Assembly (NCBI GenBank): GCA_043745805.1
Contig: JAYTSD010000009.1
Location: forward strand, 1-41,984
Origin: Fibrobacteria bacterium
GTDB taxonomy: Bacteria > Fibrobacterota > Fibrobacteria > UBA11236
Direction of reading: 5' to 3'
Length of the DNA: 41,984 nucleotides
Both the position numbers and the translations under genes were made by a program. The notes below the pieces were generated by a model. It made no database searches, was not told the DNA's origin, and was given only the letters and a program-made list of their open reading frames with translations. Shown in pieces: positions 1 to 12,853 of this stretch; the stretch's first letter is position 1; each line of letters opens with the position of its first letter.

Positions 1-59
1 GATACCACAAACCGTTTGAATTCTTCGGTAAAATTTCGCTGATTGACCAGTTCTTTCAT
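1..59 (-). CDS. 5' end of a hypothetical protein (MKELVNQRNFTEEFKRFVV...), first gene of putative cassette C; runs off the window
   Basis: Minus-strand ATG at 59 with GGAG (68-65) upstream. An in-frame alternative ATG lies at 83. It starts just after the minus-strand core GTTGTCC (96-90). Confidence 0.55.
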   Translation of the reverse strand, partial: MKELVNQRNFTEEFKRFVV

Positions 60-89
60 TATGTCTCCGAATTTTGTAAACATAATTCC

Positions 90-338
90 GGACAACACCG
101 TTGGCCCGATTTGCGAGGACGAGAACAAAGTGGGGCGCAAGCCCCCGGAGTGAATGTCCGCAGCAAGCAATGAAGATGGGGTGAGGCAAACTGACGTAGA
201 CCACAGGAGAAGACTTCAGAGAAAGTCAGTGCAGCCCGAACCCCAATCTGAATTGCCGGGCCAGCCCCAAAACCAATTTGGGCGAAGCCCCGGAGCGCGG
301 GTGGAAACCCGCGTGGAGCACCCTGGGCTGTGTTATAC
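90..338 (-). mobile_element. Long structured attC-like recombination site 1 (249 bp)
   Basis: Bounded by GGACAAC (90-96) and GTTATAC (332-338). Nested stems: TGGCCCG/CGGGCCA, ATGGGG/CCCC(A)AT, ACTGAC/GTCAGT, GGGC-GCAA-GCCC, GCGGGT-GGAA-ACCCGC. Shares GCAATGAAG, GACGTAGACC and CTGAATTGCCG with the site at 3676-3935. Confidence 0.75.
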
Positions 339-372
339 GCTGGTTTACCTCCCAGTTTTCTTGGGGGGTGGG
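332..372. repeat. Left terminal inverted-repeat arms of cassette B
   Basis: 332-351 GTTATACGCTGGTTTACCTC is the reverse complement of 3663-3682 at 18/20. 361-372 TTGGGGGGTGGG is the perfect reverse complement of 3594-3605. Confidence 0.9.
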
Positions 373-585
373 CTTGTCTTCTCTTCGCGCACCGGTTTTT
401 CCTGTTTTTGCATTACGGGGTTGGGTCCCCACTCTTACGAAATTGAAGTAATTACTTTCTTAAGGCATGGCGAAGGGCCGTAAGCATTTTGCCATGCGCA
501 CGTTTGTACCGCTTTTCTTTTCTTGTTGGCATAAGCAAAGAATGGTTATTTTTCTATAATTTAGGCCTTTTGAAGGCCATGGTAA

Positions 586-1695
586 ATGTTTCTTGATAAG
601 AACTGGTTGTCCAAGAAAACCAAACCCCAGGAAAAACAGGCTGGGAAAATAATTGGTATTGCAGATATTTTTTCTGGTTGCGGTGGGATGTCGCTTGGAG
701 CGATAGAGGCGTCAATGCTTCACAATCTTCGACCAAAGATTAAATTAGCCGTGGAAACAAACACCTACGCAAGTACGGTTTATAAAAACAACTTTTCTGA
801 TAAAATAAAAGCCTTATTAAATTCTAAAATTGAAACGATTATCGATTCCGATCCAGGCGAGCCGATTTCCAAAAAAGAAAAGCTCCTTAAAGCGAAAATC
901 GGAAAAATCCACATACTTCTTGCTGGCCCTCCTTGTCAGGGGCATTCACGTTTAAATAATTATACAAGATCTAATGACCCGCGAAACTCTTTGTATCTAA
1001 AAGCTGTGCGAATGGCAGAGATATTTAAGCCTGGTCTTGTAGTTATCGAAAATGTCGTTAATATTATTAAAGATAAAGATCGAGTAATTAACCAAAGTTC
1101 TTTGGCGCTTGAAAAAATTGGATACGAAGTAGAAAACTTAACTGTGCACCTTTCTAATTACGGAGTTGCCCAAAATCGAAAACGGCATATTCAAATTGCT
1201 ACTCTTAAAAGATTCAAAATTGACTTCTCTAACTATAAAGTAAAGTATGTTCTTTCTGATGTGATTTCGGATATTTTGGACGAATCTGTTCTTAAGGAGG
1301 GATTGTTTTTCTCTCCATCAAAAACCAAGCACCAAAACCGCATTGATTTTCTTTTCGAAAAAAATCTTTATGATTTACCAAACAGATTAAGACCCGATTG
1401 TCACAAAGATAAACATACCTACCCATCATGCTATGGCCGGTTAAATTGGAATAAACCATCTTCTACAATAACAAGAGGGTTTAGCACCATGGGACAAGGC
1501 AGGTTTTTACATCCCCTACGAAGAAGAACCTTAACTCCACATGAAGCGTGTAGAATTCAAGGCATACCAGATTATTTTGATTTTTCTAGTGTAGAAAAAA
1601 GAGGAGAGCTGCATCTGATGATCGCAAATGCGGTTCCACCAAGAATTATTGCCTGCATCATTGACCAATACATCAAAAATATTTTCAATAAATAA
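586..1695 (+). CDS. dcm: DNA (cytosine-5)-methyltransferase
   Basis: C5-MTase motifs in order: DIFSGCGG (I), GPPCQGHS (IV, catalytic PC), ENV (VI), QNRKR (VIII), RTLTPHEACRIQG (IX), IANAVPP (X). Confidence 0.95.
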   Translation: MFLDKNWLSKKTKPQEKQAGKIIGIADIFSGCGGMSLGAIEASMLHNLRPKIKLAVETNTYASTVYKNNFSDKIKALLNSKIETIIDSDPGEPISKKEKLLKAKIGKIHILLAGPPCQGHSRLNNYTRSNDPRNSLYLKAVRMAEIFKPGLVVIENVVNIIKDKDRVINQSSLALEKIGYEVENLTVHLSNYGVAQNRKRHIQIATLKRFKIDFSNYKVKYVLSDVISDILDESVLKEGLFFSPSKTKHQNRIDFLFEKNLYDLPNRLRPDCHKDKHTYPSCYGRLNWNKPSSTITRGFSTMGQGRFLHPLRRRTLTPHEACRIQGIPDYFDFSSVEKRGELHLMIANAVPPRIIACIIDQYIKNIFNK

Positions 1696-1705
1696 AGAGG
1701 TATAA

Positions 1706-2770
1706 ATGGCATCTGGAAAAAATATTTCCGCCGTCAGAAAAAAAGCCGCCGAAAAGCAGATCGTTGATAACATCAAGGTGTTTGACTACGATACTATTGA
1801 GTATCCGATCGAAGTAATTGTTGAAAAATATTCGACAGATTTAGAAGAAGAAGAGAATGACATTTATATCCCTGATTATCAAAGAGAATTTATTTGGAGC
1901 GAAAAACGCCGCTCCAAGTTTATCGAATCAATTTTGCTTGGCGTCCCCATTCCATATATATTTTTGGCCGACGTGGAAGGCCGCAAAGAAGTTGTCGACG
2001 GCTCACAACGAATTCGCACCTTAGATGTTTTTGTTAAGGACCAACACACAATTGAAAATTTAGATCGACTAACTGAGTTAAATGGATTCAAGTTTTCAGA
2101 CTTCGACCCTGTCAGGCAAAAAAGATTTCTTAATAAGAGCTTGAAAATGATTTTCTTATCGGAAAAAACAGATAGCATCGCTCGGCAAGATTTATTTGAA
2201 AGGATAAACACTGGTAGCGACGAGCTAAAACCGATGGAAGTCTTGAAAGGTAGTCAGGGAGGTAAATTTTACAGCTATCTTGAAGAGTGTAGTAAAAAGC
2301 CTTTGTTCAAAAAACTTTGTCCTATTAGCGACAAAACAAGTATTAGAGAAGAAGGTACTGAAAGAGCTTTAAGGTTTTTTGCATATTCAGAATCCTTGGA
2401 AGGCTATTCCGGAGTAGTAAGTGCTTTTATGGAAAAGTATATGAAAAAACGCTCAAGTAATTTTTCCACAACTGAGCGAAACAAGCTTGAGAAAAAATTC
2501 AACGATATGTTGGCCTTTGTAGATAGTCATTTTCCAAATGGTTTTAAGAAAAATAACAAAACTAAGTCAACTCCTAGGGTTCGTTTTGAGGCTATTTCAA
2601 TTGGTGTTTCCAAGGCATTGGAAAAAAAACCAAATTTGACTGTAACAAATGTTGATTGGCTTGAATCGGAGGAGTTTAAACATCACACTCGCTCAGATGC
2701 AGCTAATAATAAATCTAAACTTGAAGGACGAATTAATTTCGTAATGAACAAACTTTTGGGAAAAGTTTGA
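1706..2770 (+). CDS. DUF262 (GmrS/ParB-like) domain protein
   Basis: IPDYQREFIW, FIESILLGVPIP, VVDGSQR and FERIN motifs typical of DUF262. RBS AGAGG upstream. Confidence 0.9.
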   Translation: MASGKNISAVRKKAAEKQIVDNIKVFDYDTIEYPIEVIVEKYSTDLEEEENDIYIPDYQREFIWSEKRRSKFIESILLGVPIPYIFLADVEGRKEVVDGSQRIRTLDVFVKDQHTIENLDRLTELNGFKFSDFDPVRQKRFLNKSLKMIFLSEKTDSIARQDLFERINTGSDELKPMEVLKGSQGGKFYSYLEECSKKPLFKKLCPISDKTSIREEGTERALRFFAYSESLEGYSGVVSAFMEKYMKKRSSNFSTTERNKLEKKFNDMLAFVDSHFPNGFKKNNKTKSTPRVRFEAISIGVSKALEKKPNLTVTNVDWLESEEFKHHTRSDAANNKSKLEGRINFVMNKLLGKV

Positions 2771-3489
2771 TGAAATCAGTAATAGACGATTTTAATTTGA
2801 GAGCTAAGGAAATTGATATTTATTTTCAGTTCCTAAAAGATGTTGTTGACAAAGATTCGAAACTCAGAATATCGGACGGAAAAAAATGGCGCAAACAAAA
2901 ATTTCCGGACTCGGTTCAAAAAATTCTTAAGGCGAATTTATTTTTGCTCCTTTATAATTTGATTGAATCTTCTTTTACAAAATCTTTGGAGCATATTTGT
3001 AAAACTATCAATGATCACAATCTGATTTACCCTAAAACAATTCCCGAAATAAAAAAAATTTGGGTTAAAAAACAAGCGAAATATTTTGATCCGCCCAACA
3101 AGGGAGCTTCCCTCAGGAAAGAAGACCACTTTTTGGAGATGATTGATTCGATTTCAACTCAGGTTATTTCCATTCCATCTAGTCTGGATGATTCTGGTTA
3201 TGCTGGAAATATTGATGCAAAGAAAATACGTGAAATCGGAATGCTATATGGACTTTTCGTGACCAAGGAAGTGTTTCCTGTAAAAGGAAAGGAGCTTTTG
3301 TTGGTTAAAAACCGAAGAAATGCTTTAGCTCACGGAAATCAATCTTTTTCAGAATGCGGCAGAGACTATTCCATTAATCGTCTGGAAGAAATAAAAATTG
3401 ATTCGATTTCATATATGAAATTTATCCTAAACTCGTTTAAATTAAAGGTAAACAAGAAATATTTTCAGTCAAAAAGAGTTAAAAAGTGA
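2767..3489 (+). CDS. HEPN-domain protein (MAE_28990/MAE_18760-like), putative RNase effector
   Basis: LLLYNLIES N-terminal helix, GNID, and RNALAH (Rx4H) HEPN motif. Start overlaps the DUF262 stop. Confidence 0.85.
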   Translation: MMKSVIDDFNLRAKEIDIYFQFLKDVVDKDSKLRISDGKKWRKQKFPDSVQKILKANLFLLLYNLIESSFTKSLEHICKTINDHNLIYPKTIPEIKKIWVKKQAKYFDPPNKGASLRKEDHFLEMIDSISTQVISIPSSLDDSGYAGNIDAKKIREIGMLYGLFVTKEVFPVKGKELLLVKNRRNALAHGNQSFSECGRDYSINRLEEIKIDSISYMKFILNSFKLKVNKKYFQSKRVKK

Positions 3490-3593
3490 GATGAAAACCA
3501 ATTGGATTTCGAAAATGAATTACTTCATATGAATTCGAATTGATTCTTTCCGGTGAGCGTTTTTTCTTTCTTTTGGAATTCGCAATTCTCTTC

Positions 3594-3682
3594 CCCACCC
3601 CCCAACAAAATTCAGCTTTATAAAATTGTCGGGCAAACTGATAAGTTTGACCGGCAACATTTGAGGTAAACTTGCGTATAAC
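3594..3682. repeat. Right terminal inverted-repeat arms of cassette B with intervening hairpin
   Basis: CCCACCCCCCAA (3594-3605), hairpin TTGTCGGGCAAACT-GATA-AGTTTGACCGGCAA (3626-3657), CAACATTT (3655-3662), GAGGTAAACTTGCGTATAAC (3663-3682). Confidence 0.85.
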
Positions 3683-3935
3683 GTTCGCGCCAGTAGGAAG
3701 TGGGCTGCAAGGCCATTCTCGAAAGGTGAGGATGCGAATGAAGTGGTGCGCTATCGCACCCGAAATGAGCACCCGCAGCCTGCAATGAAGCTAACCTGAG
3801 AGCAAGCGGACGTAGACCTTTGTGAAGTTCGCGCCGCTCGAAGGTTAAGCTGAATTGCCGAGAAGGCCTTGCAGCCCATTTGCGAACCCGCAATGCGAAG
3901 CATGCCCGTGGGTTCCCTACTGGCGCTTGTTGCAC
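3676..3935 (-). mobile_element. Long structured attC-like recombination site 2 (260 bp)
   Basis: Bounded by GTATAAC (3676-3682) and GTTGCAC (3929-3935). Perfect stems GCGCCAGTAGG/CCTACTGGCGC (3687-3697/3916-3926) and TGGGCTGCAAGGCC/GGCCTTGCAGCCCA (3701-3714/3865-3878). Inner branched core is homologous to site 1. Confidence 0.85.
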
Positions 3936-3968
3936 GATCGTTTCGCATTTGCATTTATTTTAGGGGGG
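3929..3968. repeat. Left terminal inverted-repeat arms of cassette A
   Basis: GTTGCAC (3929-3935) vs GTGCAAC (5114-5120). TTTCGCATTT (3941-3950) vs AAATGCGAAA (5100-5109). ATTTATTTTAGGGGGG (3953-3968) vs CCCCCCTAAAATAAAT (5035-5050). All are perfect reverse complements. Confidence 0.9.
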
Positions 3969-3977
3969 TCTTCGAAT

Positions 3978-4976
3978 TTAATTGAAATCACCGGCAATTT
4001 CGACCTCGATGCGAGATAAGCTTCCTCTGATTCTCGGGCAAGGAAGGGACATTAAAATAGAGTCGATCATTAAGAATTTTTCTTTCGCGCCCGCAAACCT
4101 GACACAGTTCATTTTTTCCGAAAATAGTTTTAGTTTATTTGTTGGGAAAATGGAAAGCAAATTATTGGCGGTAAGAATTTCTATACCTTTTCCAAACTTT
4201 ATTTTTTGTGTGTTTCCAAATAAAATGATTTTTTCTTTCTCGGTTTTCAAGTATTGGATCATTGATTCATTCCGGATTAAATGGTACGAATCGGGATCAA
4301 CTGGAGATTTTCTACTCCAGTGCCCATCATTGTTATCACGGATATCCATCTGTTTCTCGCAGAGATTTAGTGCGTCATTTTCCCCCCAAGTTATAACCTC
4401 CATGTTTTTTAAGGAATAACCTTTTTCGTTGTCAATACGGTTTACACTGGGGATTTCCTTTTCTTGTCTTCCATTTTTATCCCACTCCGCAAATAAAATT
4501 TCAAATGGCGTACTTTTTATAATCCATTCAAAAAATGTTTCGAAAGAGAGTTTCGGAAGATCGTGTCCTCTTCTTTTGCTTCGCTCAATTATTTTTTGAA
4601 ACATTTTTTTGGCTTGAATTTGGAGTGGCTTCTCTCCGATTTTAGCAGCGTTTGCCTTGTTTTTTCGCTGTAGGGTCTTTTTCCGAATTGGGAGTGATTC
4701 AACGATAACCTTGATAATGCTTTCTTTTTCAAAGAAGTATGTAGGATCACGTGGGTCAAATTTGGTTTTAGTGATTTTGCAATATGCTGAACCCAGTGTT
4801 TCTACGTTTATCACTCTTAAAAATTTAACGAAATTGACCTCATCGTTGAAGTAGTCCATGTAATCGGATTTCGATTTTAAGAGGAGCGTGGAATTCTGTA
4901 TGCATCTTCCGTAGGTGATTTTTAACTCATCATTTTTCAGATCCTTGAATAATTGGTAGCATGAATATTGATTCAT
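3978..4976 (-). CDS. Hypothetical protein with central HNH-like (beta-beta-alpha) segment; cassette A gene
   Basis: PSVNRIDNEKGYSLKNMEVITWGEN resembles the SxDRID..GY...N....T..EN motif of phage HNH-type proteins. Start placed at MNQYSC (ATG 4976, AAGGA upstream) rather than the track's TTG at 5027. Confidence 0.6.
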   Translation of the reverse strand: MNQYSCYQLFKDLKNDELKITYGRCIQNSTLLLKSKSDYMDYFNDEVNFVKFLRVINVETLGSAYCKITKTKFDPRDPTYFFEKESIIKVIVESLPIRKKTLQRKNKANAAKIGEKPLQIQAKKMFQKIIERSKRRGHDLPKLSFETFFEWIIKSTPFEILFAEWDKNGRQEKEIPSVNRIDNEKGYSLKNMEVITWGENDALNLCEKQMDIRDNNDGHWSRKSPVDPDSYHLIRNESMIQYLKTEKEKIILFGNTQKIKFGKGIEILTANNLLSIFPTNKLKLFSEKMNCVRFAGAKEKFLMIDSILMSLPCPRIRGSLSRIEVEIAGDFN

Positions 4977-5034
4977 ATTCTTTTCCTTGCTTGAATTTTG
5001 TTTTAAAGTAGAAAAGGTAAGAATCAACTTTCTT

Positions 5035-5120
5035 CCCCCCTAAAATAAATCCAAACTCAACCTTGGCTTTTCGGCTGAAAGTCGGAAAGCCAACATTTTA
5101 AATGCGAAATGTTGTGCAAC
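5035..5120. repeat. Right terminal inverted-repeat arms of cassette A with intervening hairpin
   Basis: CCCCCCTAAAATAAAT (5035-5050), hairpin TTGGCTTTTCGGC-TGAAA-GTCGGAAAGCCAA (5063-5093), CAACATTT (5091-5098), AAATGCGAAA (5100-5109), GTGCAAC (5114-5120). Confidence 0.85.
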
Positions 5121-5132
5121 TCCTGCTTACGC
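5114..5132 (-). mobile_element. attI-like primary recombination site
   Basis: Minus strand reads GCGTAAG-CAGGA-GTTGCAC, a 7-5-7 layout like attI1 CCCTAAA-ACAAA-GTTRRRY. It lies immediately upstream of the divergent recombinase, and no long hairpin follows on the integrase side. Confidence 0.6.
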
Positions 5133-5140
5133 GCACCATA

Positions 5141-5169
5141 TTTACCAATAACATAAAAACAAGTATCTT
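5141..5169 (+). promoter_or_regulatory. Putative sigma70 promoter of the integrase (possibly leaderless mRNA)
   Basis: TTTACC (5141-5146), 17 nt spacer, TATCTT (5164-5169), then 7 nt to ATG 5177. No SD visible. Confidence 0.45.
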
Positions 5170-5176
5170 ACCCGTC

Positions 5177-6022
5177 ATGAAAGAAGACTTAATCCTATCC
5201 CTGACCCGCGAATTAAAGCGCCGAAATTACAGCCCACAAACCATAAAATCATATACTTCCGCTTTAAAGGACTATCAATCCTTTTACTTAGGCAATCCAT
5301 TAAATTATAGCGAAAAAGCAGTTCGCACTTTTTTGGAAAAACAACTCGAAAAAGGATTAGCGGCTACTACTGTCAACTTGCAAATGAACGCTTTAAAATT
5401 TTTCTATCGGGAAATCGCTCAAAATATCACAGCGATGGATAATATTAAATCGGCCAAGGAAGAGAAATCATTACCCGTCATTCTTTCCCAAAACGAAGTG
5501 CAAAAAATTTTAGAAGTTACCCTTAACCGAAAACATTATTTATTACTTGCTATTGCCTACGGAGCGGGTTTACGCGTTTCCGAAGTGGTAGCGTTAAAAG
5601 TGGGAGACATTGATTTTGAACGGAACTTAATAACGGTACGTCAAGGCAAAGGGATGAAGGATAGACAAACCTTATTGCCGTCTAATATTGTACCTGAGCT
5701 CACTCGGTTTTCACTAGGACGTAACACGCAAGAACCTTTATTCGAAAGTGAGCGCGGCGGGGCATTAAGTTTAAGGACTGCGCAAAAGGTTTTTGAGCAG
5801 GCTTGTGATAAAGCCAAAATCAAAAAACAAGCGAGCTTTCATACATTGCGTCACAGCTTTGCTACCCACCTTTTAGAGCAGGGAATCGACACCCGTTATG
5901 TGCAAGAATTATTAGGCCATGAAAACATCCGCACCACGCAATTGTACTTACATGTTACTAAGCATCACCTAAGCAAAATCGCTAGCCCTTTGAATTTTAT
6001 CGGATCAAAAAGCTTTGGCTAA
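5177..6022 (+). CDS. Tyrosine recombinase, integron-integrase-like, lacking the IntI-specific insertion
   Basis: N-terminal SAM-like domain (RRNYSPQTIKSY), LPVILS, and catalytic R (GLRVSE), K (GKGMKDR), HTLRH, LGH, Y (TTQLY). Start placed at MKEDL (281 aa). Confidence 0.92.
   Translation: MKEDLILSLTRELKRRNYSPQTIKSYTSALKDYQSFYLGNPLNYSEKAVRTFLEKQLEKGLAATTVNLQMNALKFFYREIAQNITAMDNIKSAKEEKSLPVILSQNEVQKILEVTLNRKHYLLLAIAYGAGLRVSEVVALKVGDIDFERNLITVRQGKGMKDRQTLLPSNIVPELTRFSLGRNTQEPLFESERGGALSLRTAQKVFEQACDKAKIKKQASFHTLRHSFATHLLEQGIDTRYVQELLGHENIRTTQLYLHVTKHHLSKIASPLNFIGSKSFG

Positions 6023-10641: not shown

Positions 10642-12853
<2,212 letters not shown>

Follow-up and report, generated by a model that had tools for sequence, protein, structure and literature searches.

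The window analysed here, a stretch of 41,984 nucleotides (nt), is the start of contig C9 of a Fibrobacteria genome (3.95 Mb, 99% complete) whose gyrB gene shares 79-82% identity with metagenome-assembled genomes (MAGs) of Fibrobacteres/Fibrobacteria. Judged from its sequence, the locus at its beginning is an integron-like array of a Fibrobacterota genome: two gene cassettes, named B and A, are bounded by long GC-rich site modules and carry long complementary arms at their ends, and next to cassette A stands the gene of a tyrosine recombinase that resembles the integron integrase (IntI) and has no I2 insertion. In what follows, G000 denotes this genome, other G numbers the genomes of relatives, and L numbers loci that were fetched for comparison. 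The plus strand of the window reads 5'-RYYYAAC...GTTRRRY-3' at the sites and, since cargos lie mostly on the opposite strand, the array is read on the minus strand from the recombinase gene; among the 39 cassettes compared below, 33 have their longest open reading frame (ORF) on the minus strand and five have it on the plus strand, cassette B being one of the five. The arms of the two window cassettes are as follows.

332-351, plus strand: outer arm of cassette B, 3' side in array direction (made up of box 1, 332-340, the mismatch, 341-342, and box 2, 343-351)
361-372, plus strand: inner arm of cassette B with the G-run, pairing with 3594-3605
3594-3605, plus strand: inner arm of cassette B with the C-run, pairing with 361-372
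3626-3657, plus strand: side hairpin of cassette B between inner and outer arm, from the fold of the B arms
3663-3682, plus strand: outer arm of cassette B, 5' side in array direction, ending in an RYYYAAC-type box with the presumed crossover at AA|C
3929-3968, plus strand: arms of cassette A, 3' side in array direction (outer arm 3929-3950 with a mismatch at about 3936-3940, inner arm with G6 at 3953-3968)
5035-5120, plus strand: arms of cassette A, 5' side in array direction (5035-5050 is the inner arm with C6, 5063-5093 the side hairpin and 5100-5120 the outer arm, whose last letters are GTGCAAC)

The first-pass annotation had described these ends as extended terminal inverted repeats, and a recount returned every one of its pairings: 332-351 is complementary to 3663-3682 at 18/20 positions (a repeat finder independently gave 20 nt at 90%), 361-372 to 3594-3605 at 12/12, 3929-3935 to 5114-5120 at 7/7, 3941-3950 to 5100-5109 at 10/10, and 3953-3968 to 5035-5050 at 16/16 (21 nt at 95% by the repeat finder). 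The layout that it had reported is borne out in both cassettes: the outer arm comes first, and then an inner arm that contains a G-run or C-run. None of 1,000,000 random pairs of 20-mers drawn from the window reached 16/20, the best being 15, and a complementary run of at least 12 between a random piece of 50 nt and one of 120 nt arose in 2/2000 trials, the observed runs being 12 in cassette B and 16 in cassette A. It had also been suggested that the arms would extend the recombination hairpin of an excised circle, and this is what folding in silico gives: the circularised junction of cassette A (left arm, centre module el2, right arm) folds at -110.9 kcal/mol with 37 arm-arm pairs, against -87.5 +/- 2.2 kcal/mol when the right arm is shuffled (100 shuffles), and the arms in their present array context reach -92.6 kcal/mol with 21 pairs, mostly of a generic G/C clamp. 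The side hairpin sits on the 5' arm only, so that the stem is asymmetric, and equivalents are found in most of the 39 cassettes. In cassette A this side hairpin (5063-5093) is followed by CATTTTAAAT and has a terminator-like score on the plus strand, that is, against the array direction. A further observation concerns the sequence just inside the inner arm, where a conserved T/C-rich segment of about 55 nt is shared by three unrelated cassettes (window 3541-3593; L008 ~19830-19770, minus strand; G000 contig C29 ~1090-1020, minus strand); read along the array, these cassettes would have a 5' leader in common.

The arms are not a peculiarity of the window. Cassettes lying between consecutive sites were taken from 12 genomes on the basis of long-profile and short-site calls, giving a set of 39 after removal of the duplicate locus L170, and the first 70 nt of each cassette were locally aligned with the reverse complement of its last 140 nt. 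The own partner ranks first among the 39 in 16 cassettes and among the top three in 24, and the summed own-end score is 493, against 304 +/- 11.7 for permuted ends, a value reached by 0/10,000 permutations. Where both bounding sites are long, 18/26 cassettes have own ends that score above the 95th percentile of random pairs, whereas for the two arms that flank the same module this holds in only 6/36. Pairing thus runs across the cargo and not around the site, and the point of exchange is therefore placed between the arm and the centre. Beside three recombinases without I2 (those heading window cassette A, the contig C4 array of the same genome and an array of G014), the matched arms of the first cassette start exactly at the junction. 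At least 17/24 positions of the outer arm are matched in 24/39 cassettes, so that, with the permutation result, arms are present in other cassettes of the family as well; their absence, which the first-pass annotation had named as a refuting outcome, is not what was seen. Several of the 12 calls of the short-site finder look false (L160, L161, L171, L174) and were kept in the set, and the arm signal is therefore lowered.

The fine anatomy of the outer arm was read from 19 of the 24 matched cassettes (type 1), the five with gapped or second-architecture alignments having been set aside (rows 14, 22, 23, 28 and 37). Counted from the GTT, positions 1-9 are complementary in 16-19/19 arms; a mismatch follows at position 10 in 15/19 and at position 11 in 18/19, and beyond it the arms pair again from position 12, or, after a bulge of one base, from position 13 (7/19). 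On the plus strand the mismatch consists of T opposite T or G, then G or C opposite T. Box 1, before the mismatch, is fairly conserved, and box 2, behind it, varies widely among cassettes and matches within each of them; a compensatory change from G-C to T-A at position 12 sets apart two arm variants that are otherwise nearly identical. Beyond box 2 and the side hairpin the arms pair again as the inner arm. A double-stranded core site, with two inverted boxes around a spacer of 6-8 bp, was looked for in the arm and in the junction of arm and centre and was rejected, as neither of the two boxes is an inverted copy of the other; only arms of the consensus type have a quasi-palindrome at AAC|GTT.

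Two of the earlier statements about the arms need to be narrowed. The G/C clamp is common, with runs of at least 4 in 19/39 cassettes and of at least 5 in 11/39, plus three with swapped polarity, and it is not universal. The description of the arms as cassette-specific was too strong, given that arm families are common to different cargos and genomes: G023 and G012 have almost the same arms as cassette B around other cargos, and cassette content differs between genomes that have the same site and arm families. A second arm architecture is also seen, in which a GC-rich hairpin of about 40 nt stands exactly at the position of the 2-nt mismatch and the sides of the G-run and C-run are swapped (examples are L008 18316-16845 on the minus strand and rows 0, 16, 17, 22 and 30 of the 39, row 30 being a cassette of the C4 array); the swapped runs and this second architecture argue that the pairing matters rather than the sequence. 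L008 also holds a cassette of about 180 nt without an ORF (18739-18557, minus strand), lying between two long sites, with terminal arms of 21 nt and an internal hairpin.

Between the arms of neighbouring cassettes stand the GC-rich centres of the sites, of which the window has two.

93-331, plus strand: centre module el1 of the cassette B site, truncated by an insertion sequence (IS) (nhmmer match at 101-334, model positions 34-265)
3680-3931, plus strand: complete centre module el2 of the cassette A site (nhmmer match over the full length, positions 1-265)

Module el2 is built of AAC, a loop of 4 nt, an L stem of 11 bp, a multi-helix core of about 200 nt, the L stem again, a loop of 2 nt and GTT, and the two modules (el1 at 93-331, el2 at 3683-3928) are homologous, with 76% column identity and 15 compensatory pairs. 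Contig C4 has the same long block together with versions of 24 nt and 48 nt whose borders are identical and follow one plan: AAC, a short loop, a G+C-rich stem, a loop, the stem again, one to three bases, and GTT. Given these short versions with the same borders, the GC-rich blocks are taken as the centres of attC-like hairpins of very variable size, the centres spanning 24 nt to about 285 nt and the long ones having a conserved multi-helix core. The AAC/GTT borders and covarying L stems were present in 14/14 modules examined, and AACG and TGTT vary little or not at all across 37 sequences. Some L stems are bulged and others perfect (9/9 in el2 of the window), and the loop between the R and L stems is asymmetric, its two sides measuring 3-5 nt and 0-3 nt. 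The consensus fold of 37 long centres has 60 pairs, 49 of them with compensatory changes, and one G.T pair that is invariant in 37/37; conserved single-stranded motifs are also seen in the 37 aligned copies. Most cargos are antisense to the strand that has this fold, which may therefore be a complex structure of single-stranded DNA, of a kind that is rare. Rfam gave no match at gathering thresholds in the whole window and none on the modules (1-5300) at E-values up to 10.

The nhmmer profile of the long centre was built from 30 sequences and gave about 60 matches in the own genome and in the loci around recombinase genes or module hits of relatives. Two simpler detectors had been dropped: a generic scan of the genome for AAC...GTT hairpins, with 111 matches that were mostly noise, and a regex-based site finder, which missed known sites, gave false ones and was replaced by the profile. 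BLAST with one module found matches in 18/39 genomes of the order, all in the window's own family (G015, flagged as unpublished, is among the 18 and enters no other result) and none in the 12-genome small-genome genus of that family, and the profile added one module in a second family (L078).

Several features bear on the strand that would fold. The plus strand of the window corresponds to the bottom strand of classical attC sites, for which RYYYAAC...GTTRRRY is given in sections of PMC5027507. In the mismatch columns of the outer arms (n=75), G.T wobbles are found on the plus strand in 29 and on the minus strand in eight. The presumed folding strand is antisense to most cargos, and a role at the DNA level therefore fits better than a role in the mRNA.

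The candidate enzyme and the junction that separates it from the array are found directly beyond the last arm.

5121-5176, no strand assigned: attI-like junction region that separates the recombinase gene from the first cassette, with an analogous junction directly after the C4 recombinase
5177-6022, plus strand (ORF also from 5102): tyrosine recombinase, IntI-like, without the I2 insertion (Pfam Phage_integrase and SAM_4)

Two protein models bear on its classification. Against NF040815, the XerA/"integron integrase" model, the window enzyme scores 220.4 with a cut-off of 220 in one contiguous match, while scores of 190-206 are reached by the C4 paralogue and by four enzymes of relatives that are linked to arrays, and G007's closest relative has 216.4, all six being under the cut-off. 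Against TIGR02249, the integron-integrase model, it scores 215.5, below the cut-off of 265, in two stretches; all six recombinases without I2 that were tested are under this cut-off, their best stretch ends near model position 176-181 of 315, and both G000 enzymes resume the match at about position 237-240. The best solved relative of the window enzyme, the Vibrio cholerae integron integrase (PDB 2a3v), is also matched in two stretches, with chain residues 206-243 unmatched; the second-best PDB match is a XerC-like/XerA protein. An alignment of 18 canonical IntI of relatives with 20 enzymes without I2, the window enzyme included, has 43 columns that are occupied in 80% or more of the former and in no more than 20% of the latter; the W-rich motif lies in one of the stretches concerned. 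Canonical IntI form one clade in the tree (100/99), with 19/20 of the I2-less enzymes on the other side, and IntI and I2-less enzymes together are split from two Xer-like proteins of the host (99/89), a tree with a midpoint root only and long Xer branches; the host has more distant Xer-like genes as well. No canonical IntI above the TIGR02249 cut-off was found anywhere in the own genome, 99% complete. Of the I2-less recombinase loci of relatives, 8/20 have long modules in their fetched flanks, and both such loci of the own genome have them too. Where an I2-less recombinase gene points the same way as its array, the site closest to it is a short perfect AAC/GTT hairpin (L063 10660-10720, L066 ~11385-11427, L156 ~4375-4417), and these may be an attI of hairpin type.

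Two cassette arrays are thus known from this genome, each headed by a recombinase gene: that of the window, which stops at 5120 without a hairpin centre behind the AAC and is followed by the recombinase gene from 5177, and that of contig C4, which begins about 40 nt past a second recombinase gene of the same kind and has all its cassette genes on the strand opposite to the 5'-RYYYAAC...GTTRRRY-3' strand. With recombinase genes at the head of both, a reading as a cluster of attC sites lacking integron-integrases (CALIN) was ruled out. Further fragments on contigs C17, C29 and C39 are cut by an IS or by contig ends. The left edge of the window is itself such a break.

1-92, minus strand: end of an IS, with an ORF start that reads leftward from 58; the same sequence opens contig C17

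This element, presumably IS3-like (a label given by eye only), truncates the first long site on its left and closes the contig; word depth is 60.7 at 1-92 against 15 further on. It is a multi-copy IS that breaks the assembly at three array fragments (window 1-92; G000 C17 1-95; the end of C4, with L008 19870-20000). A scan of the region for sigma-70 promoters gave eight sites, fewer than the 12.3 +/- 3.4 of shuffled sequence; the organism may use other promoter types.

Canonical integrons are found in the same lineage, with canonical IntI in 19/39 genomes of the order, and provide a comparison. The array beside one of them (L176 1-3800, G012) has a different, uniform site type, in which CCGTATAAC is followed by about 160-190 nt and then GTTATRCGG. 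In the five measurable cassettes of canonical-IntI arrays, pairing stops at a core of about 10 nt that they all share (the median is 10.0 for own and 9.8 for non-own ends), and 3969/5000 permutations reach the own sum, in a small sample in which one of the five spans several cassettes. Sites of the CCGTATAAC...GTTATRCGG type are also seen inside two long-arm units; as the same type stands both beside canonical IntI and inside these units, two integron-type systems coexist here and sometimes interleave.

The cargos of the two window cassettes differ in kind and in direction.

586-3489, plus strand (antisense to the array): cargo of cassette B, three genes (Pfam, PADLOC and ORF list)
3978-5027, minus strand (sense with the array): cargo ORF of cassette A (ORF list)

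Cassette B (3.3 kb) encodes a type II C5 cytosine methyltransferase, a GmrSD_N/NsnA/PD-T4-2_A-like protein and a HEPN_MAE_28990 protein, and on these domain matches its cargo appears defence-like. That it is antisense to the array, as had been noted earlier, is confirmed by its longest ORF on the plus strand, against the minus strand in 33/39 cassettes. The ORF of cassette A had no Pfam, NCBIfam or PADLOC match.

In the explanation proposed here, the arms are probably the lower stem of an extended attC-type hairpin that is split by the crossover at AA|C. Strand exchange at AA|C, with the plus strand of the window as the bottom strand, would take place in the middle of a large imperfect palindrome and not near its end, so that the 5' end of the cassette would take the outer arm of about 20 nt, the side hairpin and the inner arm, and the 3' end would hold the matching half together with the hairpin centre. 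The two halves, which lie 1-3 kb apart in the array, would re-pair in an excised single-stranded circle, and the stem would be whole only there, or where neighbouring cassettes share an arm family. Read from the crossover outwards, it would consist of 9 bp, the fixed 2-nt mismatch, a variable box of 8-12 bp, a three-way junction and, often, the G/C clamp. The re-formed stem could provide a Xer-like recombinase without I2 with a duplex-like arm next to the crossover and with a structural mark at a fixed place. The neighbouring recombinase, if it is the enzyme that acts here, would need or prefer the long stem and the fixed mismatch to bind and to choose the strand, since it is without the I2 insertion by which canonical IntI holds extrahelical bases. 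The anatomy of the arms, their conservation and covariation, their pairing across the cargo and the position of the arrays beside recombinases without I2 are direct observations; the crossover point, the single-stranded substrate, the acting enzyme and any effect of the arms on recombination are presumed from them.

Three other explanations of the arms have to be weighed against this one. They could be a neutral relic, in which a long palindrome beside a gene was first cut mid-way at the birth of the cassette and the arms were then kept by descent, or by mismatch correction in hairpins, with no role in recombination. Arm families that stay nearly unchanged across genomes and cargos are what descent from a common palindrome would give, and a long palindrome does stand intact around a single site (C17 2413-2445). 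A relic should decay, though, and yet box 2 varies widely and still matches within cassettes, the mismatch at positions 10 and 11 is kept and has neither been repaired nor spread, and the G.T wobbles are biased to one strand, for which reasons a relic is considered unlikely. Still less probable is a role in RNA, whereby the ends of a transcript would pair, like the processing stems of rRNA, to cut or stabilise cassette-sized RNAs or to insulate cassettes. The arms do bracket the coding part of each cassette, and the side hairpin at 5063-5093 with its T-rich tail resembles a terminator on the plus strand; the better-pairing strand is that plus strand, however, while 33/39 cargos are on the minus strand, so that an mRNA would have A.A and C.A mismatches. 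Pairing also begins exactly at the GTT/AAC recombination boxes, and terminator-like sequences are no more numerous in the region than in shuffles (7 against 5.6 +/- 2.7).

The arms could, lastly, be inverted recombination sites by which the cargo is flipped, as in an invertible segment or shufflon; the first-pass annotation had raised this, and inverted repeats do flank each cargo, a tyrosine recombinase gene adjoins and the cargo of cassette B is reversed. The orientation of the cargos, however, is biased (33 minus against 5 plus of 39) and not mixed, a single arm is not a palindromic core of two boxes, and no strand-changing joints were seen in a search of contigs only. Cassette B itself is telling, as its side hairpin, its mismatch and the side of its G-run keep the usual polarity despite the reversed cargo, so that its orientation is not the product of an inversion at the outer arms. 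Cargo inversion is thus left without support, and the arms are scarcely to be thought of as a switch.

A number of points weigh against the reading of the arms as a split lower stem, or limit its reach. The outer arm is matched at fewer than 17/24 positions in 15/39 cassettes, some of which go back to doubtful "short" calls or missed sites. Classical-type sites inside two arm-to-arm units (G000 C4 271503-271571; L063, at two places) are left unexplained by the simple model. The first cassette beside the canonical IntI of G023 (contig C7; L161 3146-4720) has a long site and a typical 3' arm with no matching 5' arm, its attI junction reading ...GTCCGTCTAAC|AATATT, and long modules stand near canonical IntI in 3/19 such loci; the I2-less enzyme is therefore not the sole candidate actor, and the link between the arms and the loss of I2 is a correlation within one lineage. 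The bias in free energy between the strands is modest, the plus strand being the more stable in 25/37 centres and 14/19 arm pairs (DNA parameters). The relatives are kin and not independent samples, so that the counts overstate independence. No circle and no junction of excision, deletion or inversion was seen in four runs of one study that contain this stretch, two of which may be its source; as only contigs were compared, this does not speak against excision or inversion. The loose ends seen at 334 and 336 in the run contigs belong to the paralogous modules of C4, and the lower word shares of runs X3 and X4 reflect low depth. A tblastx comparison of all cassette bodies found no identical cargo in two contexts or orientations, the one weak pair having a doubtful boundary.

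If the arms replace the recognition that depends on I2, they would illustrate a way for structure-specific recombination to do without I2. Integron finders reportedly require the insertion and a bounded attC size (Cury et al. 2016), and such a replacement would explain why standard finders would miss such arrays; the canonical and I2-less systems of one lineage would then be a natural pair for comparison. The arrays also hold cargo, in cassette B, that appears defence-like. The insertion is described as "not fully conserved" in the integron-like subgroup in sections of Smyshlyaev et al. 2021 (PMC8138268), and IntI is thought, according to PMC7790495, to have shifted from double-stranded to single-stranded substrates by gaining the I2 helix. 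The hairpin-bounded arrays described here adjoin enzymes without I2, and their sites differ from classical attC by a long, split lower stem with a fixed mismatch. A wider and more tentative proposal, possible though rather doubtful, is that Fibrobacterota, and perhaps other phyla, have a second kind of integron beside the canonical one, in which an I2-less enzyme reads the split stem with its mismatch and box 2 serves as an address. The recombinase would then never have had the I2 helix, or would have lost it, and the stem with the 2-nt mismatch would stand in for the extrahelical bases; box 2 would pair the cassette's own ends in single-stranded DNA, join the crossover points and so pre-form the synapse for excision, and the same pairing would make the excised circle a far better site than any site of the array. 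Searches of the full-text literature, supplements aside, found no description of such split long arms or of integron-like arrays in Fibrobacterota.

Four known systems invite comparison. Invertible segments and shufflons, which tyrosine invertases drive, are alike in that inverted repeats flank a gene-carrying segment beside a tyrosine recombinase gene; in the present arrays, unlike in those, the repeats differ by cassette, orientation is biased and the polarity of the arms is independent of the cargo. The dif site of Xer systems is a single 28-bp duplex of two arms around a spacer of 6-8 bp and is not known to be linked to cassettes. The window enzyme is like the archaeal XerA (NF040815; PDB 4a8e, 5hxy) in protein length and domain layout. 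The differences are that the sites here are hairpins of variable size, that two paralogues in one genome each head a cassette array while the host has other Xer-like genes, and that enzymes of the window type sit with the canonical IntI of the lineage in the midpoint-rooted tree. The DUF1874 motif of Weinberg et al. 2017 has a conserved multi-stem structure in consecutive intergenic regions, one per gene, and is discussed in passages of that paper (PMC5737381) as a possible, unusually complex attC, that is to say a candidate site of single-stranded DNA recombination whose structure goes beyond a hairpin. The arrays here, unlike those for which the same passages report no recombinase gene, have such genes at their heads, and the modules are taken as a different motif because no Rfam family matched.

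The fourth comparison is with the classical integron, which consists of an IntI integrase, an attI site and cassettes that end in attC hairpins and recombine through their folded bottom strands. Here too, a recombinase gene heads a one-directional array with its first cassette abutting, the hairpin sites have stems that covary without conservation of sequence and an internal loop between R-type and L-type stems, and the start of each cassette is complementary to an inverse box at its own end. The attC hairpin has an unpaired central spacer of 5-6 nt. Complementarity of the ends extends here over about 20 nt and is then resumed in the inner arm, compared with about 7 nt in classical cassettes; a fixed 2-nt mismatch lies outside the R box; attC sites, in the description given in sections of PMC5027507, have extrahelical bases at the L box, and of the L stems here some are bulged and others perfect; the loop between R and L measures 3-5 against 0-3 nt, and the centres range from 24 to about 285 nt, the long ones with a multi-helix core. 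The recombinase has no I2 insertion, and true canonical integrons with another site type coexist in relatives. What stands of the integron platform is therefore the recombinase-headed array with its attC-like sites, and what does not is its assignment to the ordinary integrons: lacking the IntI insertion, the locus is not filed as a canonical integron, though it would work like one.

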